Part shown: piece after piece, positions 9,898-51,035 of the stretch
How the letters are laid out: each line of letters begins with the position of its first letter
How positions within the stretch are numbered: position 1 is the first letter of the stretch
Assembly (NCBI GenBank): GCA_963754885.1
Contig: CAVWHT010000041.1
Location: 24,441-88,440, forward strand
DNA: 64,000 nt
Reading direction: 5' to 3'
Origin: an uncultured Acidobacteriota bacterium
GTDB lineage: Bacteria > Acidobacteriota > Terriglobia > Terriglobales > Acidobacteriaceae
Notes under the pieces: model-generated
The model's database searches: none
The model's input: only the letters and a program-made list of their open reading frames with translations
What the model was told of the DNA's origin: nothing
Position numbers and translations under genes: made by a program

Positions 9898-9988
9898 CAA
9901 CGCCTGTGCAGGGACGGACGCAGCCTGCCCTGAGCGGAGCCGGAGTGCTGGATGTTCTTCCTGTTGTCCAACCTCCGAGTCGTTATTT

Positions 9989-12372: not shown

Positions 12373-12605
12373 GGCAGCGCTCCGAAGAGTAGCGACATCC
12401 AAATATGTGTGGTCGCTCACGAAGCGGACCCGTGGGCGTCTGCAGCGGCTCGCCGCACGCCCGTTACATTGGTCCTTCGCTGCGCGCAGGATGACAAATC
12501 TGAGGGGGACGTAACCCTTTCGTAACCCTCTTGGGTGCACAATTTTTGTTGCACTTTAACATTCATGAAATATCTTCCGAGTAACATATTTTCAGGAGGC
12601 CGCTC

Positions 12606-14955: not shown

Positions 14956-15453
14956 ATGACCGTATTAACCCGTTGGGAGCCGTTCCGTGAGTTTGCCACG
15001 CTGCAGGACCGCATCAACCGCGTATTCCGCGATTCCTACACCGCAGACCGGGATGAGTCCCTCACCACCTCGAGCTTTGCCCCCGCCGTTGACGTCTACG
15101 AAGACGAGCACAAAGTCACGTTGAAGATCGAAGTGCCCGGAATCGACGAGAAAGATATCGACGTCCGCGTGGAGAACAACACTCTCACCGTGCACGGCGA
15201 GCGCAAGATCGAAAAGGAAGAGAAAGAAGAGAACTATCGCCGTGTGGAGCGCCAGTACGGCAGCTTCACCCGCACCTTCACCCTGCCCACGACCGTGGAG
15301 ACCGAGAATGTTTCGGCGAACTACGACAAGGGCGTCCTGAAGATCAGCTTGCCCAAAAAGGCCGAAGCCAAGCCGAAGCAGATCAAAGTGCATGTCGGCA
15401 GCGAAAAGGGCGAAAAGACCCTCGAAGCCAAGGGCCCCAGCAAAGCCGCGTAA
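14956..15453 (+). CDS. Hsp20/alpha-crystallin family small heat-shock protein
   Basis: RBS aaggagg 14941..14947. Contains the alpha-crystallin domain ...PAVDVYEDEHKVTLKIEVPGIDEKDIDVRVENNTLTVHGERK...GVLKISLPK. Confidence 0.95.
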   Translation: MTVLTRWEPFREFATLQDRINRVFRDSYTADRDESLTTSSFAPAVDVYEDEHKVTLKIEVPGIDEKDIDVRVENNTLTVHGERKIEKEEKEENYRRVERQYGSFTRTFTLPTTVETENVSANYDKGVLKISLPKKAEAKPKQIKVHVGSEKGEKTLEAKGPSKAA

Positions 15454-15456
15454 AAG

Positions 15457-15482
15457 CAGTGGTCAGTGGCCAGTTGCCAGTG
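15457..15482 (+). repeat. One-armed tandem CAGTGG-word repeat
   Basis: cagtggtcagtggccagttgccagtg immediately after the hsp20 stop. Same word as the hairpins at 44417, 44931 and 49835. Confidence 0.7.
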
Positions 15483-15490
15483 AAACCCAT

Positions 15491-15534
15491 GTGGGGACAG
15501 CCGCCCCCGGCTGTCCGGTCGAGCCAAGCTCGAC
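15491..15534 (+). repeat. REP-like element, family TGTGGGGAC-palindrome-GTCCGG-CGAGC..GCTCG
   Basis: ggacagccg-cccc-cggctgtcc (15495..15516) plus gtcgagc-caa-gctcgac (15518..15534). Copies at 35566..35599, 37239..37283, 38989..39010, 40884..40922 and 54304..54348. Confidence 0.8.
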
Positions 15535-15634
15535 TCGATTTCCAGTCGATAGCGGCAATGATTGGGAAGGGCACGACTTAAAGTCGTGCCGCCAAAGGGC
15601 CCGTTATGACAGGGCTTTAGCCCTTGAGCTCCAA

Positions 15635-15670
15635 GGGAGGCGGCAGAGATGACCGCCTCCCAATTATTTT
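15635..15670 (+). terminator. Terminator-like hairpin in hsp20-clpB spacer
   Basis: gggaggcgg (15635..15643) / ccgcctccc (15653..15661), 9-bp stem, followed by aattatttt. Confidence 0.5.
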
Positions 15671-15756
15671 GTAATTGTGAAATTTGGTAATTTTGTAATT
15701 GTGAAACCGATGCGGCGGTAAGCGCCTCCAATTACTAAATTACAAAATTACTAAAT
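15668..15756 (+). repeat. Stuttered-word hairpin (GTAATT words)
   Basis: Left arm ttttgtaattgtgaaatttggtaattttgtaattg. Right arm caattactaaattacaaaattactaaat, ending 10 nt before the clpB ATG. Confidence 0.7.
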
Positions 15757-15766
15757 CGAGGTTCCC

Positions 15767-18409
15767 ATGCCCATCCGTTGGGACAAATTTACCGTCAAAG
15801 CGCAGGAAGCGGTCCAGCGCGCGAACGAGCTCGCCTCCGAGCACGGCAATCCTGAGTTGCAGCCTGCCCACCTGCTCGCAGCTCTGCTCGAAGATAAAGA
15901 AGGCATCGTTCCGCCCGTGCTCGAAAAAATCGGGATCGGCCCGCAGGCGGTTCTGAGCGAGGTCTATCGCGAGATCGAAAAACTTCCCAAGGTTTCAGGA
16001 CAGGCCGCGCAGGCCACGCTCTCCAATGAAGTCAACCAGCTTCTGGAGGATGCCTTCAAAGAGGCTTCCAATTTCAAGGACGAATACGTTTCCACCGAGC
16101 ACTTGCTGCTCGCCATTACGCACCTCAAGCGCGATGTCGCCCAGCAAATCCTGGCGCGTCACGGAGCGACTTACGACGCGATTCTGAAGGCGCTCACGGT
16201 CGTGCGTGGATCGCAGAAAGTCACCGATCAGAATCCCGAGGCCAAATATCAGGCGCTGGAGCGTTACGCTCGCGACCTGACCGAGCAGGCCCGCCGGGGC
16301 AAGCTCGATCCCGTGATTGGACGCGATGAAGAAATCCGCCGCGTCGTTCAGGTGCTCTCGCGGCGCACGAAGAATAATCCCGTGCTGATCGGGGAGCCCG
16401 GCGTCGGCAAGACCGCCATCGTCGAAGGTCTTGCACAACGCATCATTTCGGGCGACGTTCCTGAAGTTCTGAAGAACAAGCGCGTCGTTGCGCTCGATCT
16501 GGGAGCAATGCTCGCTGGCGCGAAATATCGCGGTGAATTCGAAGACCGCCTCAAAGCGGTTCTAAAGGAAATCGAAGACTCGCAGGGACAGGTCATCCTG
16601 TTCATCGACGAGCTGCACACGCTGGTCGGAGCCGGAGCGGCCGAAGGCGCCATTGACGCCTCCAATATGCTGAAGCCCGCGCTCGCTCGCGGAGAGCTGC
16701 GCGCGATCGGCGCCACCACGCTCAATGAATATCGCAAGTACATCGAAAAAGATGCCGCGCTGGAACGCCGCTTCCAGATCGTCTTTGTCGGCGAGCCGAA
16801 TGTTGAAGACACGATCGCCATTCTCCGCGGCCTGAAAGAAAAATACGAAGTGCATCATGGCGTGCGCATTAAAGACTCAGCGATCGTCGCCGCCGCAACG
16901 CTTTCGCACCGCTACATCTCTGACCGCTTTCTGCCCGACAAGGCCATCGACTTGATCGATGAAGCCGCTGCGTCGCTGCGCATCCAGATCGATTCTCTGC
17001 CAACGGATATCGACCAACTGGAGCGCCGCGCTACACAGCTCGAAATCGAAAAGTCGGCGTTGAAGAAAGAAGACGATCCGAACTCGAAGGAACGGCTAGG
17101 CGTGATCGAAAAAGAGCTTGCCGAGATTCGCGAGCGCTCCAACACGCTGAAGGCGAACTGGAAAAAAGAGAAAGATGCGATCGCCCGCATCCGCGCTCTG
17201 AAAGAGCAGATCGAAAAGCTGAAGGTCGAGGAGCAGGCGGAACTGCGCAAGGGCAACAACGAACGTGTCGCGGAAATCCGCTACGGAAAGATTCCGCAAG
17301 CCGAGCAGGAACTGGCCAAGCTGAGCAAACAGATGGAGAGCCAGAGCGGCAAGCGCATGCTCAAAGAAGAAGTCGACGAAGAGGACGTTGCGCGCATCGT
17401 CTCCAAGTGGACCGGCATTCCCGTCTCGAAGATGCTCGAAGGCGAAGTCAAGAAGCTGGTCACCATGGAAGAGCGCCTGCGCCAGCGCGTCATCGGCCAG
17501 GATCCTGCATTAGAGCGAGTGGCGAATGCAATCCGCCGTTCCCGCGCCGGGCTTAGTGATCCCAAACGTCCGATCGGTTCGTTCATCTTCCTCGGACCAA
17601 CCGGGGTCGGCAAAACCGAACTGGCCCGCGCCCTCGCCGAATTTCTATTCGACGACGAGCACGCCATGATCCGCATCGATATGTCTGAGTACATGGAGAA
17701 GCACTCCGTCGCCCGTCTGATCGGCGCTCCTCCGGGCTACGTCGGCTACGAAGAGGGTGGACAGCTTACCGAGCAAGTCCGGCGGCGCCCGTACGCCGTC
17801 GTGCTCTTTGACGAAATTGAGAAAGCGCATCCTGACGTCTTCAACGTCCTGTTGCAGATGATGGACGACGGCCGCCTGACCGACGGCAAAGGCCGCGTGG
17901 TCGACTTCAAGAACACGATCATCATCATGACGTCGAACATCGGTTCGCAACTCTTGCAGGCAGACAGCCTGAAATCCGATCGCGACTTCGACGAAGCGGC
18001 GCAGCAAGTGCAGAACCTGCTGCACACGCATTTCAAGCCGGAGTTTCTGAACCGCGTGGACGACATCATCGTTTTCCGTCCGCTGGGCAGAGAGCAACTG
18101 GTCAAGATCGTCGAACTGCGTCTGGAAGACGTTCGCCGGCTGCTGGCCGATCGCAAGATTTCGCTCGAACTGACGGACGCAGCCAAGGAACTGATGTTCA
18201 CGCAGGGCTACGATCCGAACTTCGGCGCTCGCCCGTTGAAACGCGCGATCCAGAAACTGATTCAGGACCCGCTGGCGCTGAAGATCCTCGACGGCGAAGT
18301 TCTGCATGGGGATCACGTTATCGTCGATGCCGACAAGAAAGCTGGCAAGATGACCTTCGCAGTCAGCAAGCGGGTGGGCGAGAAAGAACCGGCAAAGGCG
18401 AAACGCTAA
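15767..18409 (+). CDS. clpB: ATP-dependent chaperone ClpB
   Basis: 880 aa. Two AAA+ modules ([15 protein letters not shown]; [15 protein letters not shown]) with a coiled-coil middle domain. Confidence 0.97.
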
Positions 18410-18481
18410 TCACCACGGAGGCGCAGAGACACGGAAGCTACATTTGATTGGATCTGCTCCGTGGCTCAGTGCCTCCGTGGT
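18410..18481. terminator. Long hairpin between convergent clpB and polA (CACGGA words), probable bidirectional terminator
   Basis: caccacggaggc (18410..18421) pairs perfectly with gcctccgtggtg (18470..18481). An inner cacggaagc / gctccgtg pairing also exists. Confidence 0.6.
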
Positions 18482-18496
18482 GAGAACGCGCTTCGT

Positions 18497-35565: not shown

Positions 35566-35599
35566 ATTTTGTGGGGACAGCCGCCATCGGCTGTCCGGC
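35566..35599 (+). repeat. REP-like element (TGTGGGGACAGCCG family)
   Basis: ttttgtggggacagccg-ccat-cggctgtccggcc; 9-bp stem 35574..35595. Confidence 0.8.
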
Positions 35600-35683
35600 C
35601 GCCATGCGGCGTATGGCTGTGCCCCGCACACAAGCCTCGCATTTGAACTTGCCGCCTTCCCACTCGTATACTGACAGCCCGCC

Positions 35684-36430: not shown

Positions 36431-36472
36431 AAATCAAAGAACTTGAAACCTGAAACTCGAAACTCGAAACCT
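36431..36472 (+). repeat. One-armed tandem GAAAC(C/T) word array
   Basis: aaatcaaagaacttgaaacctgaaactcgaaactcgaaacctg between ispD and ispF, covering the only available ispF start (TTG 36443). Confidence 0.7.
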
Positions 36473-38857: not shown

Positions 38858-38988
38858 AGCCTGCGCTTCGGGAGTAGGAGGCCTCAGCGGCTTGAGGCCG
38901 CACTTCTTTGCGCTTCATATGGCCCAACTGTACGTCGGGCCCGTCCCGGTATTCTTCCCCGGGATGCGTTGTTCCCACGGCGCTCGCC

Positions 38989-39010
38989 GGACAGCCGATG
39001 GCGGCTGTCC
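38989..39010. repeat. REP-like hairpin (GGACAGCCG-ATGG-CGGCTGTCC)
   Basis: Perfect 9-bp stem, intergenic. Confidence 0.8.
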
Positions 39011-39056
39011 CTACATGCGCGCCCTCGCTGTCACTTCGTGAGCATAGGCGCGGACA

Positions 39057-41404: not shown

Positions 41405-41516
41405 GGGGCGAGAGGCTTGCCCCTGGGGCGCTCGGCTTCGCCTTCGCTTGGACCCTTCGACTGCGCTCAGGGCAGGCTAACGAGGCGGCCGTCGCCACAG
41501 GGCCAGGCTGGGTCAG
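41404..41516. repeat. REP-like GC-rich repeat block (includes the CGCTCAGGGCAGGCT motif)
   Basis: gacccttcgactgcgctcagggcaggctaac resembles 40808..40838 and, inverted, 9922..9936. Confidence 0.65.
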
Positions 41517-41517
41517 C

Positions 41518-41613
41518 GAATTTTGATTGTTGAATTTTGATTGTTGAATGACAATAATTGTGGACCCCAAGCGGGGTTCATTCAACCATCAACATTCGAC
41601 CATCAACGATTGG
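41518..41613 (+). repeat. Stuttered-word hairpin (TTGATTGTTGAAT words)
   Basis: Left arm gaattttgattgttgaattttgattgttgaatga. Inner stem acccc-aagc-ggggt. Right arm tcattcaaccatcaacattcgaccatcaacgattgg, ending 5 nt before tRNA-Gln. Confidence 0.75.
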
Positions 41614-41618
41614 CTTAC

Positions 41619-41692
41619 TGGGCCGTCGACTAATGGTAGGTCAAGTGCCTTTGGAGCACTTTGTCTAGGTTCGAATCCTAGCGGCCCAGCCA
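41619..41692 (+). tRNA. tRNA-Gln(UUG)
   Basis: UGGGCCG-UC-GAC..GUC-A-AGUGC-CUUUGGA-GCACU-UUGU-CUAGG-UUCGAAU-CCUAG-CGGCCCA-G-CCA; canonical 74-nt cloverleaf with encoded CCA. Confidence 0.9.
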
Positions 41693-41713
41693 GAAGAACC
41701 GCGATGAGTTTTC

Positions 41714-41777
41714 GAGCGGGTGAGCAATGAGCAACCTCGATTCTGACTTTGCTCACCACCTCATTGCTCACGGCTCA
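41714..41777 (+). repeat. Stuttered-word hairpin (GTGAGC/ATGAGC words)
   Basis: gtgagcaatga (left) pairs perfectly with tcattgctcac (right); additional tgagcaa/ttgctca register. Confidence 0.7.
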
Positions 41778-41800
41778 ACGCATAAGAGCGAAGCGAAACT

Positions 41801-42859
41801 ATGGCCACCTTAGTCACGCCGACCGACAAGACGACCGACAAGGTTGAGAAGAAGAGTCCGCCTGTGCCCGACGAGAAGCAGGAGCGGAAGCAGCGTCCGC
41901 GAGTGGACGAGAAGTTCAAGATCTTCAGCGGTACGGCGAATGAGCCGTTGGCCGACGAAGTTTGCCATTTTCTCGGGATGCCGCGCGGGCAGGCGCAGGT
42001 GACGCGCTTTGCCGATGGCGAGTGCTACGTGCAGATCCAGGAGAATGTGCGGGGCTCCGATGTGTTCGTGCTGCAGCCGACCTGCCATCCGGTGGATGGG
42101 CACTTGATGGAGTTGCTGCTGATGATCGATGCGCTGAAGCGCGCGTCGGCGCGGCGCATCACGGCGGTGATTCCGTACTTCGGATATGCGCGGCAGGACC
42201 GGAAAGATAAGCCGCGGAGTCCGATCTCGTCGAAGCTGGTGGCGGATTTGCTGACGACCGCAGGGGCGCACCGGGCGCTGATTGTAGATTTGCATACGCC
42301 GCAGTTGCAAGGATTTTTCAACATCCCGGTCGATCATCTGTTTGCGTCGCCGGTGCTGGTGGATCACTTCCGCAAGCTGGCGTTGCCGAACTTGACCATT
42401 GTTTCGCCGGATGCGGGCGGCGTGGAGCGGGCGCGGTTTTTCGCGAAGAAAGTGGACGCGGCGCTGGCGATCGTCGACAAGCGGCGCGTGGAGATGAACG
42501 TCGCGGAAGTGATGCACGTGATCGGCGACGTCAAAGAGCGGACCTGCCTGATCATCGACGATTTGATCGATACGGCCGGGACGCTGGTGAAGACGGCGGC
42601 TGCGTTGAAAGACAATGGCGCAACCGAGGTTTACGCCTGCGCTTCGCATGCAGTGCTGTCGGGGCCGGCGGTGGAGAACATCCGGAATTCTGTGATCAAG
42701 GAAGTCGTAGTCACGAACACGATTCCGCTGAGTCCGGAGGCCGACGCAGCTCGAACCGAAAAGGGAGGAAAGATTTCCGTCCTCTCGATTGCAGGATTGA
42801 TTGGCCGGGCGATTCAGGCGAATCACGAAGAAACCTCGGTCAGTAAGTTGTTTATCTAG
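41801..42859 (+). CDS. prs: Ribose-phosphate pyrophosphokinase
   Basis: ...FKIFSGTANEPLADEVC...VIPYFGYARQDRK...IIDDLIDTAGTL..., with a ~35-aa K/E/P-rich N-terminal extension. Confidence 0.95.
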   Translation: MATLVTPTDKTTDKVEKKSPPVPDEKQERKQRPRVDEKFKIFSGTANEPLADEVCHFLGMPRGQAQVTRFADGECYVQIQENVRGSDVFVLQPTCHPVDGHLMELLLMIDALKRASARRITAVIPYFGYARQDRKDKPRSPISSKLVADLLTTAGAHRALIVDLHTPQLQGFFNIPVDHLFASPVLVDHFRKLALPNLTIVSPDAGGVERARFFAKKVDAALAIVDKRRVEMNVAEVMHVIGDVKERTCLIIDDLIDTAGTLVKTAAALKDNGATEVYACASHAVLSGPAVENIRNSVIKEVVVTNTIPLSPEADAARTEKGGKISVLSIAGLIGRAIQANHEETSVSKLFI

Positions 42860-42860
42860 C

Positions 42861-42943
42861 GGTGAGCGGTGAGCGGTGAGCAGTGAGCCATGAGCACATG
42901 CAGGTTTTGCTCGCGGCTCATGGCTCGCAGCTCATCGCTGATT
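42861..42943 (+). repeat. Stuttered-word hairpin (GGTGAGC words)
   Basis: ggtgagcggtgagcggtgagcagtgagccatgagc versus gctcatggctcgcagctcatcgctgatt. Over 28 positions: 22 WC + 4 G.U + 2 mismatches. Confidence 0.8.
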
Positions 42944-42965
42944 TCTCAGATAGGAATTGACATTT

Positions 42966-43691
42966 ATGGCGACTGCATTGGAAACGAACGTACTGGAAGG
43001 GCAACCGAGGGAAGCTGGGACGAAGAACGATGCCAAGCGCGTGCGCCGCGACGGAAAGATTCCGGCGGTGGTGTATGGAGCGGGGAAAGAGTCGCTCTCG
43101 ATCAGCGTCGACCCGCGCGTGGTGACCCGGATTCTGAATTCGGAGACCGGCCACAACACGATTTTCGATCTGGCGATGGGCGGCGAGAAGACCAAGACCA
43201 TGATCGTTGACTGGCAATACGAACCAATCAAGGGCAAGCTGCTGCACATCGATTTGAAGCGGATCGCCCTCGACAAGGTGCTGAAGGTCAGCGTGCCGAT
43301 CTTCCTGGTCGGCGAAGCCGCGGGCGTGAAGCAGGAGGGCGGCATCATGGAGCAGATGCTGCGCGAAGTCGAGATCGAGTGCTTACCGGCGGATATTCCG
43401 AGCCACATCGATGCCGACGTCAGCCATTTGACCTTTGGCAAGGTGCTGCGCGTTTCCGATTTGCCGCACTCGGACAAGCTGAAGTTCATGACCGACGCCA
43501 ATCAGCCGGTTGCGCACGTGACCTCGGTCAAGGAAGAAGTTGTGGTCACGCCGGAAGCCGTGGCGGCAGAGGCGGGAGCTGCTCCAGCCGAGCCCGAAGT
43601 CATCAAGAAGGGCAAGCAGGAGACCGAAGAAGAGGGCGCCGAAGCTGCGGCCGAGAAGCCGGAGAAGGCCGAGAAGAAAGAAAAGAAGTAA
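42966..43691 (+). CDS. rplY: 50S ribosomal protein L25 / general stress protein Ctc
   Basis: MATALETNVLEGQPREAGTKNDAKRVRRDGKIPAVVYG...; C-terminal E/K/A-rich tail. The track start TTG 42957 is less likely than ATG 42966. Confidence 0.92.
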   Translation: MATALETNVLEGQPREAGTKNDAKRVRRDGKIPAVVYGAGKESLSISVDPRVVTRILNSETGHNTIFDLAMGGEKTKTMIVDWQYEPIKGKLLHIDLKRIALDKVLKVSVPIFLVGEAAGVKQEGGIMEQMLREVEIECLPADIPSHIDADVSHLTFGKVLRVSDLPHSDKLKFMTDANQPVAHVTSVKEEVVVTPEAVAAEAGAAPAEPEVIKKGKQETEEEGAEAAAEKPEKAEKKEKK

Positions 43692-43695
43692 GGAA

Positions 43696-43800
43696 GCGAG
43701 CCGAACGCGCGGTAATTGCGTCGCAAAAAGCGCGACGCTTCGTGCGGCTCGCCCAGGTCCTTCGCGAGACAAAGAGCGTCTCGCTCAGGATGACAAATCG
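43696..43800. repeat. REP-like hairpins plus the CTCAGGATGACAAA motif
   Basis: Nested gcgagccg..cggctcgc (43696..43752) with inner gcgtcgc/gcgacgc; gcgagac-aaagagc-gtctcgc (43764..43784). The motif recurs at 12473..12500. Confidence 0.7.
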
Positions 43801-43825
43801 TCTGAACTGAGGAAGCGAATCAGGC

Positions 43826-44428
43826 GTGAAACTGATTGTGGGTCTCGGCAATCCCGGAATCGAATATCAGTTCACGCCGCATAACCTGGGATTCCTGGCG
43901 ATCGATCGCATCGCGGGGAACCTGGGAGTGGAAGTGAGAAACCGGCAGTGCCGGGCGCTGACGGCGCGCACCGTGATCGCCGATCAGATGGTGCTGCTGG
44001 CCAAGCCTGAGACGTTCATGAATTTGAGTGGCGTTTCGGTGCGGGAGCTGGTGAGAGAGTACGAAGCAAATCCGGAATCGGATCTGATTGTGATTCAGGA
44101 CGAACTGGATTTTCCGCTGGGCACGCTGCGCATTCATACGCGGCGCAGCTCGGCGGGGCATAACGGCATCGAGTCGATCATCGATGCGCTGGGCACGCAG
44201 GATTTCCTGCGGATCCGGATTGGCGTGGCGCCGGAGCGGCCAGTACAGGTCATCAGCGCCGCGGTTGCCGCCGGGAAAGATTACCTCCTGGCTCCGATGC
44301 GCAAGGCGGATCTGAAAGTCGTGGATGGGATGCTCGACACCGCCGAAGAAGCGGTGAAGGTCATTCTGAAAGAGGGTCCGGCGGCGGCGATGAATCGCTT
44401 TAACCGGAAAGAAGAAAGTGGCCAGTGA
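43826..44428 (+). CDS. pth: Peptidyl-tRNA hydrolase
   Basis: GTG start; (M)KLIVGLGNPGIEYQFTPHNLGF...AGHNGIESI. Confidence 0.95.
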   Translation: MKLIVGLGNPGIEYQFTPHNLGFLAIDRIAGNLGVEVRNRQCRALTARTVIADQMVLLAKPETFMNLSGVSVRELVREYEANPESDLIVIQDELDFPLGTLRIHTRRSSAGHNGIESIIDALGTQDFLRIRIGVAPERPVQVISAAVAAGKDYLLAPMRKADLKVVDGMLDTAEEAVKVILKEGPAAAMNRFNRKEESGQ

Positions 44429-44497
44429 TGAGTGGTCAGTGGCCAGGCCGACAAGATTTTGCTGATCACTGATCACTAATCACTGACCACTAGCCAC
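44417..44497 (+). repeat. Stuttered-word hairpin (CAGTGG / CACTGA words)
   Basis: The left arm agtggccagtgatgagtggtcagtggccagg begins in the last pth codons. The right arm ctgatcactgatcactaatcactgaccactagccac ends 7 nt before the rpsF RBS. Confidence 0.75.
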
Positions 44498-44514
44498 AGG
44501 ATTTGGAGAAACGA

Positions 44515-44928
44515 ATGAATCGTACTTATGAGCTGATGTTTATCGTCCGGCCGGATATGACGGACGAGGATCTGGACAAACTGATTTCGACGCTGCAGTC
44601 GGTTGTGCCCCCCTCGGGCGGCACAGTGGTGCGGGTCGACAAGATGGGCAAGAGACGCCTGGCCTACACCGTGCGGCGGTTTCATGACGGCATTTACGTC
44701 CTCATGGTCGTCGAGGGCGGAGGGCCGGTTATGCACGAACTGGAGCGCCGGTTGCGCGTGACCGAGCCGGTGATCAAGTTCCTGACCGTGCGCGTGGACG
44801 AAGAGCAGAAGCGGCTCGCCAAGATCAAGGCGCTGCGTGATGCGAAAAAGAAAGTAAGCGCGCAGCCGGCAGCAGCGGCTCCGGAAGAGGCGGCAGCGCC
44901 TGCCGCGGAAGCTCCAGCGACAGCGTAG
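44515..44928 (+). CDS. rpsF: 30S ribosomal protein S6
   Basis: GGAG 44505..44508 then ATG 44515; MNRTYELMFIVRPDMTDEDLDKLI...GKRRLAY. Confidence 0.95.
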   Translation: MNRTYELMFIVRPDMTDEDLDKLISTLQSVVPPSGGTVVRVDKMGKRRLAYTVRRFHDGIYVLMVVEGGGPVMHELERRLRVTEPVIKFLTVRVDEEQKRLAKIKALRDAKKKVSAQPAAAAPEEAAAPAAEAPATA

Positions 44929-44930
44929 AG

Positions 44931-45019
44931 CGAGTGGTCAGTGGCTAGTGGCCAGTGACCCGGGCTCGTTCCCTACTGCGATTTTTGACTGGCCACTGAT
45001 CACCGATCCCTGGCCACTG
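44931..45019 (+). repeat. Stuttered-word hairpin (CAGTGG words)
   Basis: 10-bp perfect core agtggccagt / actggccact (44945..44954 with 44986..44995), extended to 24 positions (18 WC, 3 G.U, 3 mismatches). Ends 4 nt before the rpsR RBS. Confidence 0.8.
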
Positions 45020-45033
45020 ACTTAAGGAGAATT

Positions 45034-45412
45034 ATGGCTGACGAAACAAAAGCACCGGAGCAACAAGCGGCACCGGCCCCCAGCGAGCGTCCGCGGTCGG
45101 ACGGGCCTCGGCCCGGGCGGAGATCGTCCGCGATTTGGTGGCGGCGGGCGCGGTCCCGGAGGGCCTCCGCGCGAAGGCGGCGGCGGACGGAAATTTTTCC
45201 GGCGCAAGAAAGTGTGCAAGTTCTGCACCGAGAAAATCGAAGACATCAATTACAAGGACTACCGGCTGCTCGGGCAGTTCGTGGCCGAGAGCGGCAAGAT
45301 CGTGCCGCGGCGGCTGACCGGCGTCTGCGCGCCCCACCAGCACCGGCTGTCATCGGCCATCAAGCAGGCGCGGAACATCGCGCTGCTGCCGTTCGCGGGA
45401 AGAGCGTCGTAA
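45034..45412 (+). CDS. rpsR: 30S ribosomal protein S18, apparent 1-nt frame disruption in the G/R-rich N-terminal extension
   Basis: AAGGAGA 45024..45030 + ATG 45034 opens one frame ([20 protein letters not shown]...). The conserved core [65 protein letters not shown] is in the frame of track ORF 45212..45412. The span is 379 nt = 3n+1. Confidence 0.85.
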
Positions 45413-45423
45413 AAAACCATTAG

Positions 45424-45504
45424 CCACGGATTTGCACGGATCCCCACGGATAAGGCTTTTTCAACGATTTTGGTTTATCCGTGATGATCCGCGTGAATCC
45501 GTGG
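45424..45504 (+). repeat. Stuttered-word hairpin (CACGGA words)
   Basis: 30-nt arms ccacggatttgcacggatccccacggataa / ttatccgtgatgatccgcgtgaatccgtgg: 25 WC + 2 G.U + 3 mismatches, 21-nt loop. Confidence 0.85.
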
Positions 45505-45530
45505 CAAAGAATTCTGAAACGGAGTCATCC

Positions 45531-45986
45531 ATGGAAGTCATTCTGAAAGAAGATGTAGCGAAGCTGGGATCGCGCGGCGATGTGGTGAAGGTCGCGGAAG
45601 GATACGGGCGGAATTATCTTCTGCCGCGCAAGCTGGCCATCCAGGCCAATGAGAGCAACAAGGCCGTCATCGTGCAGATGAAGGCCGCCGCGGTGCGGCG
45701 TTCGGCCAAAGAGAAGGCCCAGGCCGAGGAACTGGCCAAGCAGTTCGAAGGCGCGTCGGTGTCGTTCACACGCAAGTCGGGCGAGCACGATCAGCTGTTC
45801 GGATCGGTCACCTCGGGCGACCTAGCCGATGCACTGACCAAGAAGGGCTTCAACGTGGACCGCCGCAAGATCCAACTGCACGAGCCGCTGAAGACCGTGG
45901 GCGAGTTCACCGTGCCGGTCAAGCTGCACAAGGACGTAACCGCGCACCTGAAGGTCGTAATCGAGAAGGAAGCGGTTACAGAGTAG
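45531..45986 (+). CDS. rplI: 50S ribosomal protein L9
   Basis: GGAG 45521..45524 then ATG 45531; MEVILKEDVAKLGSRGDVVKVAEGYGRNYLLPRKLA. The upstream 33 codons of the track ORF are the hairpin read as protein. Confidence 0.95.
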   Translation: MEVILKEDVAKLGSRGDVVKVAEGYGRNYLLPRKLAIQANESNKAVIVQMKAAAVRRSAKEKAQAEELAKQFEGASVSFTRKSGEHDQLFGSVTSGDLADALTKKGFNVDRRKIQLHEPLKTVGEFTVPVKLHKDVTAHLKVVIEKEAVTE

Positions 45987-45992
45987 TCGTAG

Positions 45993-46042
45993 CGCCGCCG
46001 TCCCGGCGGCTGTCCCGGCGGGCGTCTCGCCCGCCGCTGTGC
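45993..46042. repeat. REP-like double hairpin flanked by the 9-bp direct repeat TAGTCGTAG
   Basis: gccgccg-tcc-cggcggc (45994..46010) and cggcgggcg-tct-cgcccgccg (46016..46036). Direct repeats at 45984..45992 and 46043..46051. Confidence 0.75.
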
Positions 46043-46302
46043 TAGTCGTAGACTCTGCTGCGATGGGCAATGCGCGTTATACTCACGCGCCGAGCTGTAT
46101 CGTCGACAATGTATACAACGCGCCAGTCGCCGATGCGGATCCGCCACTGATCTCTATAGCCCTTCAGCTTTTTGCATCCTGCGGGTCGTGGATCTTCCGT
46201 CAGAGATTCGATTTTCCTGACTACACGCGCCAGCACCGTGTCAGGTAAAGTTTCCAGTTCTTTTCGCGCTGAAGTCTTGAACTCGACGGCATAGCTATCC
46301 AC
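46042..46302 (-). CDS. relE: Type II toxin, RelE/ParE family mRNA interferase
   Basis: 86 aa; ...LPDTVLARVVRKIESLTEDPRPAGCKKLKGYRDQWRIRIGDWRVVYIVDD... is a typical RelE/StbE fold pattern. Confidence 0.85.
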   Translation of the reverse strand: MDSYAVEFKTSARKELETLPDTVLARVVRKIESLTEDPRPAGCKKLKGYRDQWRIRIGDWRVVYIVDDTARRVSITRIAHRSRVYD

Positions 46303-46486
46303 GAAGCCGCCCGCGCTTCACGAGGTCTGCCTTCACCTTTTGCAACGATGTTCCTGATTCTTTGCGACGGGATTCAGAGATCAGGCCGTCCCAAAAATCT
46401 CGAAGACGGGATCCGTGCTTCTTCAGGTCGATAAGAACGGCGACCTTGCGGCCTTTGCCATCGGTGACGAATTGCACTCCGGTCAT
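46295..46486 (-). CDS. Putative cognate antitoxin (63 aa), family not recognised
   Basis: 8-nt overlap with the relE start; small and charged. The position is typical of an antitoxin. Confidence 0.55.
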   Translation of the reverse strand: MTGVQFVTDGKGRKVAVLIDLKKHGSRLRDFWDGLISESRRKESGTSLQKVKADLVKRGRLRG

Positions 46487-46936
46487 GACCCTATTTTCCC
46501 ATATGCACCTGAACTACTTCTAGGTACGGTCCACCGTGCGGGCCGCTCGTCTCAAGTTGTGTGTTCTCAGCGACGGACAAAACGGGCACTTTCCTTGCCA
46601 AATCACCTGCCCATCCTTGTCCCCCAATGTTCTGTTTCCCCCTAACTCCCTGCCCGAGAATCACCTAGGCCCCCACAAAATCCCTGTAACGCCTATAATT
46701 TCTGCTCACGGATCGGGGGATTCTCCGTCTATTCCTGTGCAAGCCCGGAAGACATCAAAGCCGGGCAGGTAGAGGACATAGCCGAAATGCCGGCCGATGC
46801 TTGGTGTATATCACTTGCGGTTGGCGGACAGGCCCACTCGAGAGAGAGTGAGTTAACGGAGAGAGTTGGTAGTCGAGCAGCTCGGGAACTTCACGAAAAC
46901 GAAGCTCGAGAAAACCAGGACCCCGCGCGGGGCCGC

Positions 46937-47530
46937 ATGGCTGGGCAAGAACGCCGTATCGATGACACGATGTTGATCCGCGAAGCGCAGCGGGGAAACC
47001 GCGCCGCCTTCGAGGAACTTGTGCGCCACTACGACCAGGCGGTGCTGCGGCTCGCTCTTCATCTCACCGGAACTGAACACGACGCGCAGGACGTGTATCA
47101 GGACGCCTTTCTCAAGGCCTATAAGAACATCGGTAATTTCCGGTTCGAGTGTTCCTTCTACACATGGATTTACCGGATCGTGACCAATTTGTGTCTCGAT
47201 CACCTGCGCAAAAAGACCGTGCGCAAAGAAGATGCGCCGGTGGCGAAGGATCCTGACGGCGGCGAGTACGACCTGCTCGATCAGGTGCCGGATGGACGGG
47301 CGGGGGCGAATCCGGAGCGCGATTTGATGCGGCGGCAGTTGGGCGCGCGGATTGCCGGAGCGCTGGAGAAGCTTACGCCGCGCGAACGGATGGTGTTCGA
47401 GCTGAAGCATTATCACGGATTGAAGCTGCGCACCGTGGGTGAGATTTTGCATACGACGGAAGAGACCGCCAAGAATACGCTCTTCCGGGCCACGCAGAAA
47501 TTGCGCGGAGCGCTGGCGGATATGAGATAG
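46937..47530 (+). CDS. ECF-type RNA polymerase sigma-70 family factor
   Basis: Start taken at MAGQERRIDDTMLIREAQRGNRAAFEELVRHY. Region 2 (DVYQDAFLKAY) and region 4 (LTPRERMVFELKHYHGLKLRTVGEIL). Confidence 0.9.
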   Translation: MAGQERRIDDTMLIREAQRGNRAAFEELVRHYDQAVLRLALHLTGTEHDAQDVYQDAFLKAYKNIGNFRFECSFYTWIYRIVTNLCLDHLRKKTVRKEDAPVAKDPDGGEYDLLDQVPDGRAGANPERDLMRRQLGARIAGALEKLTPRERMVFELKHYHGLKLRTVGEILHTTEETAKNTLFRATQKLRGALADMR

Positions 47531-47614
47531 CAATGAGTTATGAGCTATGAGCTATCAACCCGAAGACTCCGGGATTGGATCGCTCGCTGCTCATCGCTCG
47601 GAGCTCACAGCTCG
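47522..47614 (+). repeat. Stuttered-word hairpin (ATGAGC / GCTCA words)
   Basis: The left arm atgagatagcaatgagttatgagctatgagctat spans the sigma stop codon. The right arm gatcgctcgctgctcatcgctcggagctcacagctcg ends 11 nt before the anti-sigma ATG. Confidence 0.75.
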
Positions 47615-47625
47615 AAGGTGCAACT

Positions 47626-48573
47626 ATGAAGTGTGAATGGGTTCGAGAAAATATTGTGCTCCACGTTTACGGCGAACTGGCTGACGATGTCCGCCACGAA
47701 CTGGAGCAGCATGTGTCCCGCTGCGCGGACTGCGCAGCCGAACTGAAGGCGGAGCAGGATTTTCATACTCTGCTGCTCGAGGATCGCGCGGGCGATCCAT
47801 TGCTCAACGATCCGGCGCCGAATCTGCTGGCGTCTTCGCGCATGCGCCTGCAGGAGGCGCTGGAGACCGCGCCGCAGGGTACCTTCTGGAGCCGGCTGCC
47901 CTTCGATCCGGTGGATTGGCTGCGGCAGGTACGGTTCTCGCCGGCACTGGCCTCGGTCATTCTGATTCTCGGCTTCGCCGGCGGAGTTGGGACAGCCTAC
48001 AAAATCTACGGGGCGCACCCAATCACCATCGCCGGCACTCCGATTGTCACACCTGTTCCCGCTTCCATTTCCGGCATTGATTCGGTAACTCCACTCCCCG
48101 GCACCGACCAGGTCAGCATCAAGTACAACACGGTTTCGACACAGGAAGCGCAGGGATCGCTGAACGATCAGAAGATCCAGCAACTGCTGCTGTACGCGGC
48201 CCGCAATAACTACAATTCTGGCGTGCGCGTGGATTCGGTCGACTTGCTGGCACAGCGATCGGGCGACATGCAGGTGCGGGAAGCGTTGATCTATGCGCTG
48301 CAGAACGACACTAATCCGGGCGTGCGGCTGAAATCGCTGACCGCGCTGGGCAATTATGTGAAGACCGACACCAATGTGCGCGATGCCGTGCTGCGGGCGC
48401 TGGTGAACGATACGAATTCGGGAGTACGCATTGAAGCGCTGCGTTTGATCGAGCCGGCGAAAGCCGATGGCAGCGTGCGCGGCGTGCTGATGGCGCTGGC
48501 GGCGAAGGACCAGAGCACGTACATCAAGTCGCAGGCCCGCACCATGCTGGCGCAGTTGCCGGAGATTGATTAA
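47626..48573 (+). CDS. Anti-sigma factor (zf-HC2) with TM segment and C-terminal HEAT-like repeats
   Basis: MKCEWVRENIVLHVYGEL...HVSRCADCAAEL; TM ALASVILILGFAGGVG; repeats NSGVRVDSVDLL / NPGVRLKSLTAL / NSGVRIEALRLI. Confidence 0.8.
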   Translation: MKCEWVRENIVLHVYGELADDVRHELEQHVSRCADCAAELKAEQDFHTLLLEDRAGDPLLNDPAPNLLASSRMRLQEALETAPQGTFWSRLPFDPVDWLRQVRFSPALASVILILGFAGGVGTAYKIYGAHPITIAGTPIVTPVPASISGIDSVTPLPGTDQVSIKYNTVSTQEAQGSLNDQKIQQLLLYAARNNYNSGVRVDSVDLLAQRSGDMQVREALIYALQNDTNPGVRLKSLTALGNYVKTDTNVRDAVLRALVNDTNSGVRIEALRLIEPAKADGSVRGVLMALAAKDQSTYIKSQARTMLAQLPEID

Positions 48574-48580
48574 GAAAGTT

Positions 48581-48607
48581 CGGCGAGGGCGGGACGCCGG
48601 CGCTACG
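48581..48607. repeat. REP-like short hairpin (GGGACGCCGGCGCTAC family)
   Basis: cggcg-agggcggga-cgccg then gcgctac. Confidence 0.6.
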
Positions 48608-48630
48608 AAGTGAGAAATGAGGTGGATCAT

Positions 48631-49830
48631 TTGAAACGCGCGCTACAGATCGTTGGTCTGGCTGGAGTACTGGCCCTCCTGGCGCCGCTGGCCGTGGCGC
48701 AGGACATTCATGTGTCCCGCGAAGGCGGAACCTGGGGACAGGAGATTACAGGCTCACTGGCTGCGGTAAAGAACTTAAGAGTGAAAGTCGATATGGGCTC
48801 GGTCGTGGTGCGAGGCGGGCAAGAGCAGGGCATCCATTATGTGGTTCATACGCATTTCGATAATTCGTCGGAGGAAGAAGCCCGCCGCCAGTTCGACAAG
48901 TTCAAAATCAGCGCCTATGTGAAAGGCGACACGGCGTGGATCGTGGGCGATTGGCAGGGAGGGCACCGTCCGCGACATTTTTCGGGCGAATTCTCCATCA
49001 ACGTTCCCCGCGAGATTGCGCTGGTGAAACTCGAGACCGAAGGCGGCAACGTTGACGCGTCAGGTCTGGCCGGGCGGGTGGAAGCCGAAAGCGGTGGCGG
49101 CAGCCTGAAACTTGACGACATCGGCGCTGGCGCATACGCCGAAACCGGGGGCGGCTCGATCGAAGTTGGAACCGTGGGCGGCGATCTGGGACTGCACACC
49201 GGCGGTGGTTCGATCGAAGTGCGCCACGCCAATGGTAAAGTCGTGGCGGAAACCGGCGGCGGCAGCGTGCGCATCTTTGCGGGCGCGCAGGGTGCAACCG
49301 TGGAAACTGGTGGCGGCAGCATTGAAGTGCATCGGTGCTCCGGTACGGTCAAGGCGTCCACCGGCGGCGGCAGCGTAGATCTAAGCGATCTCGACGGTCC
49401 CGTGGATATTTCGACCGGAGGCGGCAGCATCCGGCTGACTTCCGCCAAGGGTCATGTCCATGCGGAGACCGGCGGAGGAGGAATTGAACTTTACGGCGTC
49501 CCGTCGGCGCGGGCAGAAACCGGCGCGGGCGGGATCACGGTGAAGCTGGTGAACACGGGTAGCGAGCGGCATGATTCGGATCTTGAAACCGGCGCGGGCG
49601 ACATCACCGTTTACATCGCTGCAGATGTAGCCATCAACGTTCGCGCCAGCGTCGATATGGGGAACGGGCATCGCATCACATCGGACTTCCCCGACATACA
49701 CGTTCACAGCGAAGGCGATCAGTGGGGGCCGAAGACGCTGACTGCCGAAGGTGCGCTGAACGGCGGCGGACCTACGCTGAAAGTTCACACTTCGACCGGA
49801 GATATCTGTATCAGGCGGGCCAGCCGGTAA
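48631..49830 (+). CDS. DUF4097-type beta-strand repeat protein (putative adhesin)
   Basis: GAGGTGG then TTG 48631; signal (M)KRALQIVGLAGVLALLAPLAVAQ. About 10 periodic ETGGGSI(E/R)V units. Confidence 0.8.
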   Translation: MKRALQIVGLAGVLALLAPLAVAQDIHVSREGGTWGQEITGSLAAVKNLRVKVDMGSVVVRGGQEQGIHYVVHTHFDNSSEEEARRQFDKFKISAYVKGDTAWIVGDWQGGHRPRHFSGEFSINVPREIALVKLETEGGNVDASGLAGRVEAESGGGSLKLDDIGAGAYAETGGGSIEVGTVGGDLGLHTGGGSIEVRHANGKVVAETGGGSVRIFAGAQGATVETGGGSIEVHRCSGTVKASTGGGSVDLSDLDGPVDISTGGGSIRLTSAKGHVHAETGGGGIELYGVPSARAETGAGGITVKLVNTGSERHDSDLETGAGDITVYIAADVAINVRASVDMGNGHRITSDFPDIHVHSEGDQWGPKTLTAEGALNGGGPTLKVHTSTGDICIRRASR

Positions 49831-49834
49831 AAGA

Positions 49835-49904
49835 AGTGGTCAGTGGCTAGTGGTCAGTGGCAGACTGACTACTGCTTGCTGACCGCTGGCCACTGGCTAC
49901 TGCC
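49835..49904 (+). repeat. Stuttered-word hairpin (CAGTGG words)
   Basis: agtggtcagtggctagtggtcagtggcag ... ctgaccgctggccactggctactgcc, ending 3 nt before the next RBS. Confidence 0.7.
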
Positions 49905-49912
49905 AACGAGGA

Positions 49913-51035
49913 ATGAAAATGCGCAACTACATTCTGATCAGCATCGCGGTGGTGCCGTTGCTTCTCACCTTTTCGCACGCCGCGCAGAACTCGACCTCGG
50001 GCCCGCCGGGACAGAATTGGATATTCTCCAGCGAGGACAGCGGCACCAGTTCGTACCTCGGCGTCGACATCGCTGACGTCACGAGCGAGCGGCTGGGCGC
50101 GTTAAAGTTGAAAGAAGAAAAGGGCGTGGAAGTGACGATGGTTGACCAGGACGCTCCGGCGGGCAAGGCCGGCATCAAGGAGCACGAACGTCATTCTCAC
50201 CATGAACGGAACGTCGATCGAGAGCGAAGCGCAACTGCGGCGGATGATTCACGAAACGCCGCCGGGGCGCATCGTGACCCTGGGCCTGAGCCGCGATGGG
50301 CAGCCCATGTCAGTGAAGGTACAGCTCGCGGACAAGCACAAGGAATTTGCTTGGGACGGTCCCAAGCCGGGCGACATCCACGTGCACATTCCCGAGGTCC
50401 ATGTGCCCGATATCGACATTCCTTCGATCAACATGGTCGTGGTCACGTCTTCGGCACGCAGCGGATTGATGGTGGAAAACATCACGCCGCAGCTGGGTGA
50501 ATTTTTTGGCGTAAAGAATGGCACGGGCGTGCTGGTACGCTCCGTGGAAAAAGGCAGCCGGGCCGAGAAGGCGGGCTTTCGCGCCGGCGATGTCATCGTC
50601 AAAGTGAACGATCAACTGGTGCACGATACTAGCGACTTCGCGCACGGGGTGCGATCGCGCAACACAAACTCCGTCAACGTTCTCGTAATGCGCGACCGAA
50701 AAGAGCAGACCCTTACGCTCTCTCTGCCGGATCGAAGCGATTCCAGCAAGCTCCTCGACATCGAAGACGATGAAGATGCGCTGGCGGACGCCGAGGCTTA
50801 TTACGACATCGCTGAAATGCAGAAGGAAATAGCAAAGGTTCGGCCTGATATGGAAATTGCCGTCCAAGAGGCTGGCAAGGCCGAGCAGGCAGTTCGCGAA
50901 TCTCTCTGTCAGGCGCAAAAGGAAATTAAGCATCCGTCCGAACGCCAGCGAAAGCAGTTCAAGAAGCAGCAGGAAGAGTTGATGAAGCAACTGGAACAGA
51001 TGCGCCAGGTGCGCGGATTTCCTCTGGATCTGTAA
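49913..51035 (+). CDS. Secreted double-PDZ-domain protein, interrupted by a 1-nt frameshift at ~50187
   Basis: Signal MKMRNYILISIAVVPLLLTFSHA. PDZ-1 ...VEVTMVDQDAPAGKAGIKEH | (D)VILTMNGTSIESEAQL continues in the frame of track ORF 50142..51035. PDZ-2 GVLVRSVEKGSRAEKAGFRAGDVIVKVN. Confidence 0.75.

Follow-up and report, generated by a model that had tools for sequence, protein, structure and literature searches.

What are the hairpins that fill most of the gaps between the genes of one acidobacterial locus, and what could maintain them? We analyzed a 64,000-nucleotide (nt) stretch of DNA from an uncultured Acidobacteriota bacterium (assembly GCA_963754885.1, contig CAVWHT010000041.1, positions 24,441 to 88,440 of the forward strand), referred to below as the window. 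In the spacers between ispE and the gene of a PDZ protein, arms made of short words repeated in tandem face arms made of the reverse-complement words, and we call these structures stuttered hairpins. On balance, they probably represent an abundant, sequence-diverse class of intergenic palindromic repeats that arises from heptamer arrays, most likely intercistronic stem-loops resembling REPs (repetitive extragenic palindromes).

The G+C content of the window is ~59%. Its Pth protein finds its best match, 93% identical, in uncultured Acidobacteriota, Terriglobia and Candidatus Sulfotelmatobacter genomes; the source organism is, judged by its sequence, a Terriglobia acidobacterium near Candidatus Sulfotelmatobacter.

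Hairpins between ispE and the PDZ gene

By translation and Pfam, the plus strand carries in a row ispE, tRNA-Gln, prs, ctc, pth, rpsF, rpsR and rplI. After rplI comes a minus-strand ParE pair, then the genes of an extracytoplasmic function (ECF) sigma factor, a zf-HC2/HEAT anti-sigma factor, a DUF4097 protein and the PDZ protein. A first-pass annotation had proposed that 8 of the 11 spacers from ispE to the PDZ gene share one architecture, and the sequence, the tandem repeats, the inverted repeats and the folds all bear this out. Each of the eight contains a hairpin of 60-100 nt with an arm of tandem words, a loop and an arm of reverse-complement words, at 2-5 words per arm. Together with the tRNA gene that lies among them, they are the following.

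41518-41611, plus strand: ispE/tRNA-Gln hairpin; TTGATTG/TTGAATT, period 7/14, ~29 bp, z -5.5
41619..41692, plus strand: tRNA-Gln (UUG), with stuttered hairpins on either side
41716-41775, plus strand: tRNA-Gln/prs hairpin; short, ~15-18 bp, z -3.7
42857-42942, plus strand: prs/ctc hairpin; five GGTGAGC-type words, right arm GCTCAYN, 29 bp, z -6.7
44417-44497, plus strand: pth/rpsF hairpin; AGTGGYC in the left arm, CTGATCA/CTGACCA in the right, 27 bp, z -6.4
44928-45024, plus strand: rpsF/rpsR hairpin; CAGTGGY, arms 74-77% complementary, z -3.5
45420-45508, plus strand: rpsR/rplI hairpin; CACGGATnnn, period 10, 29 bp, z -11.2
47528-47612, plus strand: sigma/anti-sigma hairpin; TATGAGC, ~19-25 bp, begins in the TAG stop codon, z -3.5
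49832-49904, plus strand: DUF4097/PDZ hairpin; CAGTGGY, ~29 bp, z -9.0

Tandem words in the window were identified with Tandem Repeats Finder, which gave a period of 7 or 14 in seven of the eight hairpins and a period of 10 at rpsR/rplI. The words indeed differ between loci, as had been stated at first pass (the CAGTGGY, GGTGAGC, CACGGATnnn and TATGAGC families, for example). Their length had been given as a spread of 6-9 nt, which did not hold: most are 7 nt long, some are 14 nt (2 x 7), and two families have words of 10 and 8 nt. The stems are long and imperfect, as described, with a length of 15-30 bp in place of the 24-35 bp first assigned. Right arms had been placed 3-11 nt before the next ribosome-binding site or gene; by our measurement they end 3-29 nt before the next start codon.

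The folding energy of each spacer was compared with that of 200 dinucleotide shuffles. The z-scores of the eight hairpins ranged from -3.5 to -11.2, and at none of them was any of the 200 shuffles as good, while the control spacers ctc/pth and anti-sigma/DUF4097 gave z-scores of -2.8 and -1.3, respectively. Inverted repeats were sought independently of the gene row by a strict ungapped scan of the whole 64 kb. All seven of its top matches were of the stuttered-word type.

The anatomy of the single hairpins can be read directly from their sequences. At ispE/tRNA-Gln the arms lie at 41523-41551 and 41578-41606, with a GC-rich apical stem at 41563-41580. The words of the tRNA-Gln/prs hairpin are GGTGAGC AATGAGC on the left and GCTCACC..CATTGCTCAC on the right. 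The first word at prs/ctc begins within the TAG stop codon, and the TGA stop codon of pth lies inside the left arm of the pth/rpsF hairpin. The rpsF/rpsR hairpin, the minimum-energy fold of which consists of two local stems and not of one long stem, ends 4 nt 5' of an AAGGAG ribosome-binding site; the ribosome-binding sites of the window fall outside the stems. Three spacers lack a stuttered hairpin: ctc/pth, which holds another palindromic repeat, the interval from rplI to the sigma factor gene, which holds the ParE pair, and anti-sigma/DUF4097, which measures 39 nt.

A T-tract was looked for in the sequence 3' of the window hairpins and was found at no copy. At gathering thresholds, Rfam recognized two tRNAs in the window and matched no hairpin; in a sensitive Rfam scan the long stems drew just far sub-threshold, microRNA-precursor-like matches.

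Abundance, period and placement in related genomes

For comparison, 80 species-level genomes with Pth identities of 72-93% supplied the orthologous locus and the 10 kb to either side of it (labels of the L001-L066 type denote these loci of relatives; L081-L200 denote metagenome loci, described below). Inverted repeats with periodic arms were scanned for in the window and the 80 orthologous loci, 1.51 Mb together. At a score of at least 11, we obtained 238 of them (210-238 across scans), versus none in 0.44 Mb of dinucleotide shuffles. The architecture is not a product of chance. A period of 7 was by far the most frequent, found in 205 of the 238, followed by periods of 10 (17 copies), 8 (13 copies) and 5 (3 copies). 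Period-7 arrays had an inverted partner within 160 nt in 71% of cases in the orthologous set and in 83% in the metagenome set.

The repeats were strongly concentrated in spacers: 209 of the 238 (88%) were intergenic, though ~82% of the DNA was called coding. About 225 were located within the ispE-to-PDZ block and ~11 in the flanks. The expected enrichment in same-strand spacers was also found. Of the orthologous co-directional spacers measuring 60 nt or longer, those of the block had a periodic hairpin in 76 of 317 cases and those of the flanks in 1 of 149. Two sites were occupied with particular regularity. The tRNA-Gln gene is bracketed on both sides by such hairpins in nearly all related genomes, and the rpsR/rplI spacer is occupied in 62 of 77 genomes, by changing word families. 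A T-tract followed 5 of the 238 repeats, in keeping with the lack of downstream U-tracts remarked on at first pass, and a consensus terminator scan did not report the stuttered hairpins.

Hairpins in metagenomes and viruses

Metagenomes were scanned with the pattern CAGTGGYCAGTGG-N15-45-CCACTGRCCACTG, which represents the CAGTGGY type. At least 120 unrelated contigs with G+C contents of 50-75% contained such a hairpin, and the repeat type is a common one among soil bacteria. Among the matches listed, to which the counts in this and the next paragraph refer, 1-2 contigs were orthologous to the ispE-to-PDZ block. Eighty placements could be classified, of which 62 were between co-directional, 9 between convergent and 9 between divergent genes; a further twenty cases were called 'genic' by a crude gene caller, the start calls of which are crude as well. 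The hairpin core began at a median of 9.5 nt after the stop codon and ended at a median of 21 nt before the next start codon. The hairpins span the stop-to-start gap, and TAG or TGA often comes as the first word. Neighbouring genes were diverse and included those of nuo subunits, lon, metK, ispF and transporters, with ribosomal-protein genes or rpoA making up ~6 of 62 upstream genes. A tie to the translation-gene block, which the first-pass annotation had assumed, is not upheld, since the same hairpin type occurs between very diverse genes elsewhere.

The contigs that were found through this seed contained 79 further periodic hairpins in 705 kb, or 112 per Mb. The period was 7 in 63 of the 79, and these 63 copies used 49 distinct heptamers. 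On one contig of 75% G+C, a hairpin follows the gene of a TonB receptor, whose closest named relatives, at 66% identity, belong to Rubrivirga/Rubricoccaceae (Rhodothermales); the class therefore crosses phyla. Viral contigs yielded 5 matches in 2.9 million, and the hairpin is accordingly not a phage feature.

Some further properties of the words were recorded. Right-arm words CCACTGA/CCACTGG often stop 2-10 nt before an ATG that lacks a Shine-Dalgarno motif (metagenome loci L081-L200), and they have the letters ACTGA in common with the TAACTGA repeats discussed below. The 5' arms are rich in G+T (58-60%) on whichever strand they are read. We considered that the arms might act as a three-frame stop cassette, since a period of 7 equals 1 modulo 3 and words carry TGA or TAG. 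This was rejected: the stop content of the words was 0.59, compared with 0.54 in letter-shuffled words (P = 0.22). Neither did we see an effect on Shine-Dalgarno motifs, which occurred at 15 of 62 hairpin-adjacent starts against a background of 21% (34% with lenient starts), all on crude start calls.

Turnover of words at orthologous spacers

Spacer lengths among the relatives are bimodal; the prs/ctc spacer, for instance, measures either 17-20 nt or 90-186 nt. The families found in filled spacers are CAGTGGY, GTGAGCN, CACGGATnnn, CTAGCTN, TCAGCTN, TTGGCTN, TTGATTG, CAGTTCT and GTCGTTG, and some filled spacers carry repeats of a quite different kind, either a GTCATTCCGAGCG...GGAATGACAA element or GC-rich palindromes. 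An orthologous copy of the ispE/tRNA-Gln hairpin exists in most of 77 related genomes. At the position of the tRNA-Gln/prs hairpin, other genomes have CAGTTCT, TCAGCTN, TTGGCTN or CTAGCTN hairpins. In L005, L011, L012, L026, L030 and others, where rpsR/rplI has the CTAGCTN family, the right-arm words AGCTAGGAGCT include the Shine-Dalgarno GGAG of rplI, and this pairs with a CTCC that lies in the left arm ~15 nt after the rpsR stop codon.

The way in which the hairpins change is best seen in the four closest genomes, in which the flanking proteins are 91-100% identical and the hairpins nevertheless differ. At prs/ctc, close relatives differ by word indels of 7 and 14 nt. A CACGGAT hairpin stands in place of the window hairpin at pth/rpsF in L003, a GC-rich palindrome at sigma/anti-sigma in L001 and L003, and at DUF4097/PDZ the whole palindrome has been cleanly lost in L002. 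Differences in words between loci arise via replacement of whole hairpins, even at 91-99% identity of the flanking proteins. Copies of the same word family have unrelated loops. When empty and filled prs/ctc, pth/rpsF and DUF4097/PDZ spacers were compared, no target-site duplication was clear, the ancestral state being uncertain.

The left arm at ispE/tRNA-Gln (TTTTTGATTGTTGATTTTTGATTGTTGATTGACAAT; window 41518-41558) is near-invariant in 37-45 genomes, and its right arm varies by word indels. This near-invariant arm upstream of tRNA-Gln is a candidate tRNA promoter, UP element or array bound by a protein. A promoter-like TTGAAT-17-AATAAT at 41530-41558 matches at 9 of 12 positions; its -10 part is not conserved in relatives.

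Tests of selection on pairing

The first-pass annotation had proposed selection on structure rather than on sequence, with covariation in orthologous spacers as a check. In a compensatory sense this was not supported. The family that aligned best, the CACGGAT hairpin at rpsR/rplI, covered 20 genomes (alignment A4), where 92.8% of cells were paired; the stem was conserved in sequence, and covariation was not above the shuffle control. We also combined the 5' arm of one genome with the 3' arm of another. In most families these chimeras were as stable as the natives, the exception being cases in which the apical GC stem was split, where natives were better. The arms therefore pair because both consist of arrays of one word, and not through site-by-site compensation. 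RNAalifold found no consensus structure for 37 orthologous ispE/tRNA-Gln hairpins, because word indels break the column register, and this result is uninformative for covariation; what it brought to light is the invariance of the left arm.

Mismatches were counted as another sign of selection on RNA. On the sense strand, G:U exceeded A:C in two orthologous sets of non-independent copies (215 versus 159 and 54 versus 16), and showed no excess in two independent samples (50 versus 45 and 54 versus 48). Either strand thus gives a hairpin of roughly the same quality, which is what one would expect of DNA palindromes. An asymmetry of the loop, A-rich at its 5' end and T-rich at its 3' end, was weak (P = 0.045). 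Selection on structure is not demonstrated by these data, and at the RNA level it is neither shown nor excluded.

Comparison with known repeats

REPs, known from Enterobacteria and Pseudomonas, are single imperfect palindromes of 20-40 nt that end in a tag, GTAG or CGTC according to the super-family, and have a conserved sequence specific to the family; they are linked to REP-associated tyrosine transposases (RAYTs). Their roles include protection of mRNA 3' ends and differential stability within operons. Stuttered hairpins resemble REPs and BIMEs (bacterial interspersed mosaic elements) in being high-copy, imperfect intergenic palindromes that are often placed between genes transcribed together or at 3' ends, form stem-loops when transcribed and vary between strains. 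Unlike REPs, they measure 60-100 nt, their arms are tandem 7-nt words, and the words are arbitrary (49 in 63 copies). Tags at the outer ends were at or below chance, which is ~8%: GTAG/CTAC occurred in 8 and CGTC/GACG in 13 of the 238 repeats. No RAYT/Y1 transposase gene was found among the window open reading frames (ORFs) searched.

The closest relatives in the literature searched are direct heptamer repeats. TAACTGA repeats occur in Beggiatoaceae, Cyanobacteria and Bacteroidetes, and in Beggiatoaceae they end 1 nt before start codons (PMC4679880). Nostoc has short tandemly repeated repetitive (STRR) sequences and heptamer repeats (bioRxiv 10.1101/2022.06.06.494920), and an excess of heptanucleotides among the long simple sequence repeats of prokaryotes is cited in the heptamer-repeat literature. 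Stuttered hairpins share with these arrays the period of 7, the intergenic position over upstream stop codons and within a few nt of the next start codon, and the occurrence in ribosomal-protein operons; the right-arm word CCACTGA is moreover similar to TAACTGA. They differ in that an inverted partner lies within 160 nt of 71-83% of stuttered heptamer arrays, giving a long hairpin, whereas only 1 of 170 sets is inverted in the Beggiatoa genome (PMC4679880). They also use many words per genome, while one word dominates per genome in the direct arrays.

Elements resembling miniature inverted-repeat transposable elements (MITEs), such as Correia/NEMIS, ERIC, BOX and RUP, are likewise intergenic, 60-150 nt long, folded into long hairpins and co-transcribed with their neighbours, and BOX also carries a tandemly repeated module. 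MITEs, however, have a full-length consensus, terminal inverted repeats and target duplications, whereas stuttered hairpins have the word alone in common and unrelated loops. Intrinsic terminators, including the proposed type without a U-tract, also place a stable hairpin near a stop codon. In contrast to them, the stuttered stems are far longer, have no T-tract and lie mostly inside operons, with the next ribosome-binding site immediately after them. Inverted pairs of uptake sequences (the DNA uptake sequence, DUS, of Neisseria and the uptake signal sequence, USS, of Haemophilus) are over-represented short words that form hairpins after genes. Each species has a single fixed uptake word, which is linked to competence and occurs once in each arm; stuttered hairpins use many words, in tandem.

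The hairpins are consequently not REPs as defined, not MITEs and not terminators. A description of paired inverted heptamer arrays was not found within the literature searched, in which the words themselves do not occur in any paper, and with no Rfam match either, the view that no described class accounts for them still stands. The architecture is apparently undescribed and combines intergenic palindromic repeats with heptamer simple repeats.

Interpretation

We believe that the observations are probably best explained by REP-like stem-loops with the following life history. One arm holds a few tandem copies of a single word, in nearly all cases a heptamer, and the opposite arm is the reverse-complement array. 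The stutter mirrors both the construction of the elements and their mode of change. The data fit an origin from heptamer slippage arrays plus an inverted copy, and change proceeds by slippage of one word, loss at the palindrome centre or replacement of the whole hairpin. Because any word array pairs with any complementary array, the stem survives word indels and register shifts without position-by-position compensation. The elements last only where genes stay unbroken and therefore occupy stop-to-start gaps, mostly inside operons. Once transcribed there, they must form long imperfect stems of 15-30 bp in which roughly one pair in seven is mismatched. That the class exists, how it is built, how abundant it is, where it lies and how it changes are shown by the data; a role at the RNA level is suggested by analogy with REPs and other intercistronic stem-loops. 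The likeliest effect would be to block 3' exonucleases, to protect upstream segments and to mark processing boundaries; around tRNA-Gln, the mRNA ends left by tRNA excision would be protected. Terminator action would play no part. The continued occupancy of the tRNA-Gln flanks and of rpsR/rplI despite family turnover argues for some benefit, and so does the enrichment in the block.

Several points weigh against this explanation. It leaves the strict preference for a period of 7 unexplained, and its RNA-level part is an argument from analogy. The covariation in alignment A4 and the sense-strand mismatches in the independent samples, both given above, fail to support it. Many orthologous spacers are empty (17-20 nt) or carry unrelated repeats, which indicates that most sites can do without the hairpin. 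Upstream of tRNA-Gln, the near invariance of the left arm points to a sequence-specific constraint. Finally, the block enrichment counts orthologous, non-independent spacers of one lineage.

It is possible, although we consider it rather unlikely, that the hairpins are neutral or selfish by-products. Heptamer slippage together with fold-back or template-switch copying would keep making palindromes; insertions into genes would be purged, so that only spacers show hairpins, and a self-folding insert would be tolerated because it loops out. Much of the evidence fits: gain, loss and replacement are rapid between near-identical genomes, orthologous spacers can be empty, arms are interchangeable and covary no more than the control, independent copies show a symmetry of G:T and A:C mismatches, heptamer words vary widely and are arbitrary, and half-sites exist that could be precursors or remnants. 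What a neutral process does not explain is the refilling of the same spacers. The tRNA-Gln flanks and rpsR/rplI stay occupied across Pth identities of 72-93% despite family turnover, and the ispE-to-PDZ block is enriched ~47-fold over its immediate flanks. Movement as ordinary mobile elements, either REPs moved by a Y1 transposase or MITE-like elements, seems very improbable to us. One word family is dispersed over spacers and genomes, whole elements are replaced and a GC-rich apical stem is common to the TTGATTG copies, and Acidobacteria do encode a distinct group of Y1 transposases (PMC3733652). Against this stand the lack of a GTAG or CGTC tag excess (8 and 13 of 238), the unrelated loops within a word family, the failure to see a target-site duplication and the absence of a transposase gene near the window copies. 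The 49 different heptamers among 63 copies also argue against recognition by one enzyme.

Two further proposals assign the hairpins a function in expression. In the one, which is improbable, the stem would juxtapose the upstream stop codon and the downstream start codon for translational coupling; a terminating ribosome would melt the first words of the left arm and thereby free the last words of the right arm, by the start codon, for re-initiation. Hairpin ends do abut stop and start codons, many downstream ATGs lie 2-10 nt past the last word without a Shine-Dalgarno motif, and the hairpins are present in ribosomal-protein operons. In relatives with the CTAGCTN family, moreover, the GGAG of rplI lies within the last word, CTAGGAG, and is paired with CTCC near the rpsR stop codon. 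However, Shine-Dalgarno-like motifs are no rarer at hairpin-adjacent starts (15 of 62 versus 21%, with crude start calls), the ribosome-binding sites of the window are outside the stems, and copies flank a tRNA, separate convergent genes (9 of 80) and follow last genes. Coupling is possible for some copies and cannot be the general role. In the other proposal, the hairpins would be intrinsic terminators or attenuators that need no U-tract and grade transcription along operons. They are stable, G+C-rich and directly after stop codons, and some are at true operon ends, as at clpB/polA. Nevertheless, a T-tract follows 5 of 238 only, the consensus terminator scan misses them, and most copies separate cistrons needed in equal amounts (rpsF, rpsR, rplI) or lie beside a tRNA within the row. 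The missing T-tracts and the position inside ribosomal-protein operons make a terminator role unlikely, and we regard it as highly improbable overall.

A broader possibility goes beyond REP-like stem-loops, and we mention it as unlikely but of general interest. Hairpins with arms of any heptamer could be favoured between cistrons and around embedded tRNAs as a general, cross-phylum device of soil bacteria, a sequence-agnostic 'heptad zipper'. A periodic stem of this kind would re-pair in any register and so survive slippage and partial melting by ribosomes, and its effect on adjacent cistrons would be to insulate, stabilise or couple them. The unit of 7 nt would then derive from a specific property of an RNA-binding machine or of the machinery for replication or repair, and the same property would be behind the prokaryotic heptanucleotide excess and the TAACTGA-type arrays.

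If the class holds genome-wide, a sizeable share of the intergenic DNA of Terriglobia would consist of one architecture that annotation pipelines and Rfam ignore; extrapolation from ~110-140 copies per Mb gives hundreds per genome, and the architecture is present in at least one further phylum. It would then link the heptanucleotide excess with the arrays of heptamers that precede start codons in Beggiatoaceae and cyanobacteria and with the REP-like stem-loops of operons, and the reason for a unit of seven could be studied in a concrete system. In practice, the hairpins mark operon-internal boundaries and are hot spots of indels and assembly trouble in metagenome-assembled genomes, and strain typing of uncultured Acidobacteriota could make use of their fast turnover.

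Other repeats and genes of the window

Four further copies had been listed at first pass. Two are hairpins, and two are arrays without an inverted partner, which we call half-sites.

15457-15482, plus strand: half-site directly after the hsp20 stop codon; CAGTGGC x3.7, in a spacer without an inverted partner
15666-15756, plus strand: hairpin upstream of clpB; A+T-rich, period 8, words ATTTTGTA/ATTGTGAA, z -3.9
18410-18483, plus strand: clpB/polA hairpin; words CACGGAGN, period ~8, z -8.1
36440-36470, plus strand: half-site at ispD/ispF; AACTTGA x4.4, without an inverted partner

Stuttered repeats flank hsp20 and clpB, which are heat-shock genes (window 14956-18483). The hairpin at 15666-15756 stops 11 nt before clpB. 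Its A+T content is unusually high and its free energy (dG) is -25 kcal/mol across 95 nt; in principle, temperature could melt it. The hairpin at 18410-18483 lies immediately 3' of the clpB stop codon, with polA convergent; its word family recurs in the unrelated metagenome contigs L114, L115 and L181. The half-site at 36440-36470 may overlap the start of ispF.

Two other repeat classes were noticed. GC-rich palindromes of the form (T)GTGGGGACAGCCGCC...GGCGGCTGTCCC lie at 790-820, 15487-15520, 35569-35600, 38986-39015 and 45990-46040, and in L001 and L003 this type stands between the sigma and anti-sigma genes in place of the stuttered hairpin. Their start, GGGGACAG, agrees with the GGGGWSAS motif reported for the inverted repeats that flank acidobacterial Y1 transposase genes (PMC3733652). 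The remaining class is a two-part repeat at 43692-43800 (ctc/pth), with the order GGAAGCGAGCC..CGCG..GGCTCGCC, then GTCCTTCG-hairpin-CGCTCAGGATGACAA. Partial copies are found in the window near 41450-41480, 12470-12500 and 9910-9935, and the repeat occupies prs/ctc or pth/rpsF in L012, L021, L029, L031, L058, L063 and L066. A related GTCATTCCGAGCGAAGCGAGGAATC...GGAATGACAA element occupies rpsR/rplI in ~10 genomes.

The rplI-sigma interval contains, on the minus strand at 46042-46486, a ParE toxin ORF and a small upstream ORF, the likely antitoxin. Among relatives this ParE-bearing segment varies in length from ~0.3 to 5 kb and is a variable insertion spot in an otherwise syntenic row. Two genes of the window, rpsR (45036-45412) and the PDZ gene (49913-51035), are each split across two reading frames. 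The rpsR sequence reads GGCCCGGGCGG in the window and GGCCGGGTGG in L001, which amounts to one extra base in a C/G run near 45105-45110; rpsR is a single intact ORF in relatives, and the split is probably an assembly or homopolymer error. In the PDZ gene, the frame shift is located between 50142 and 50500.

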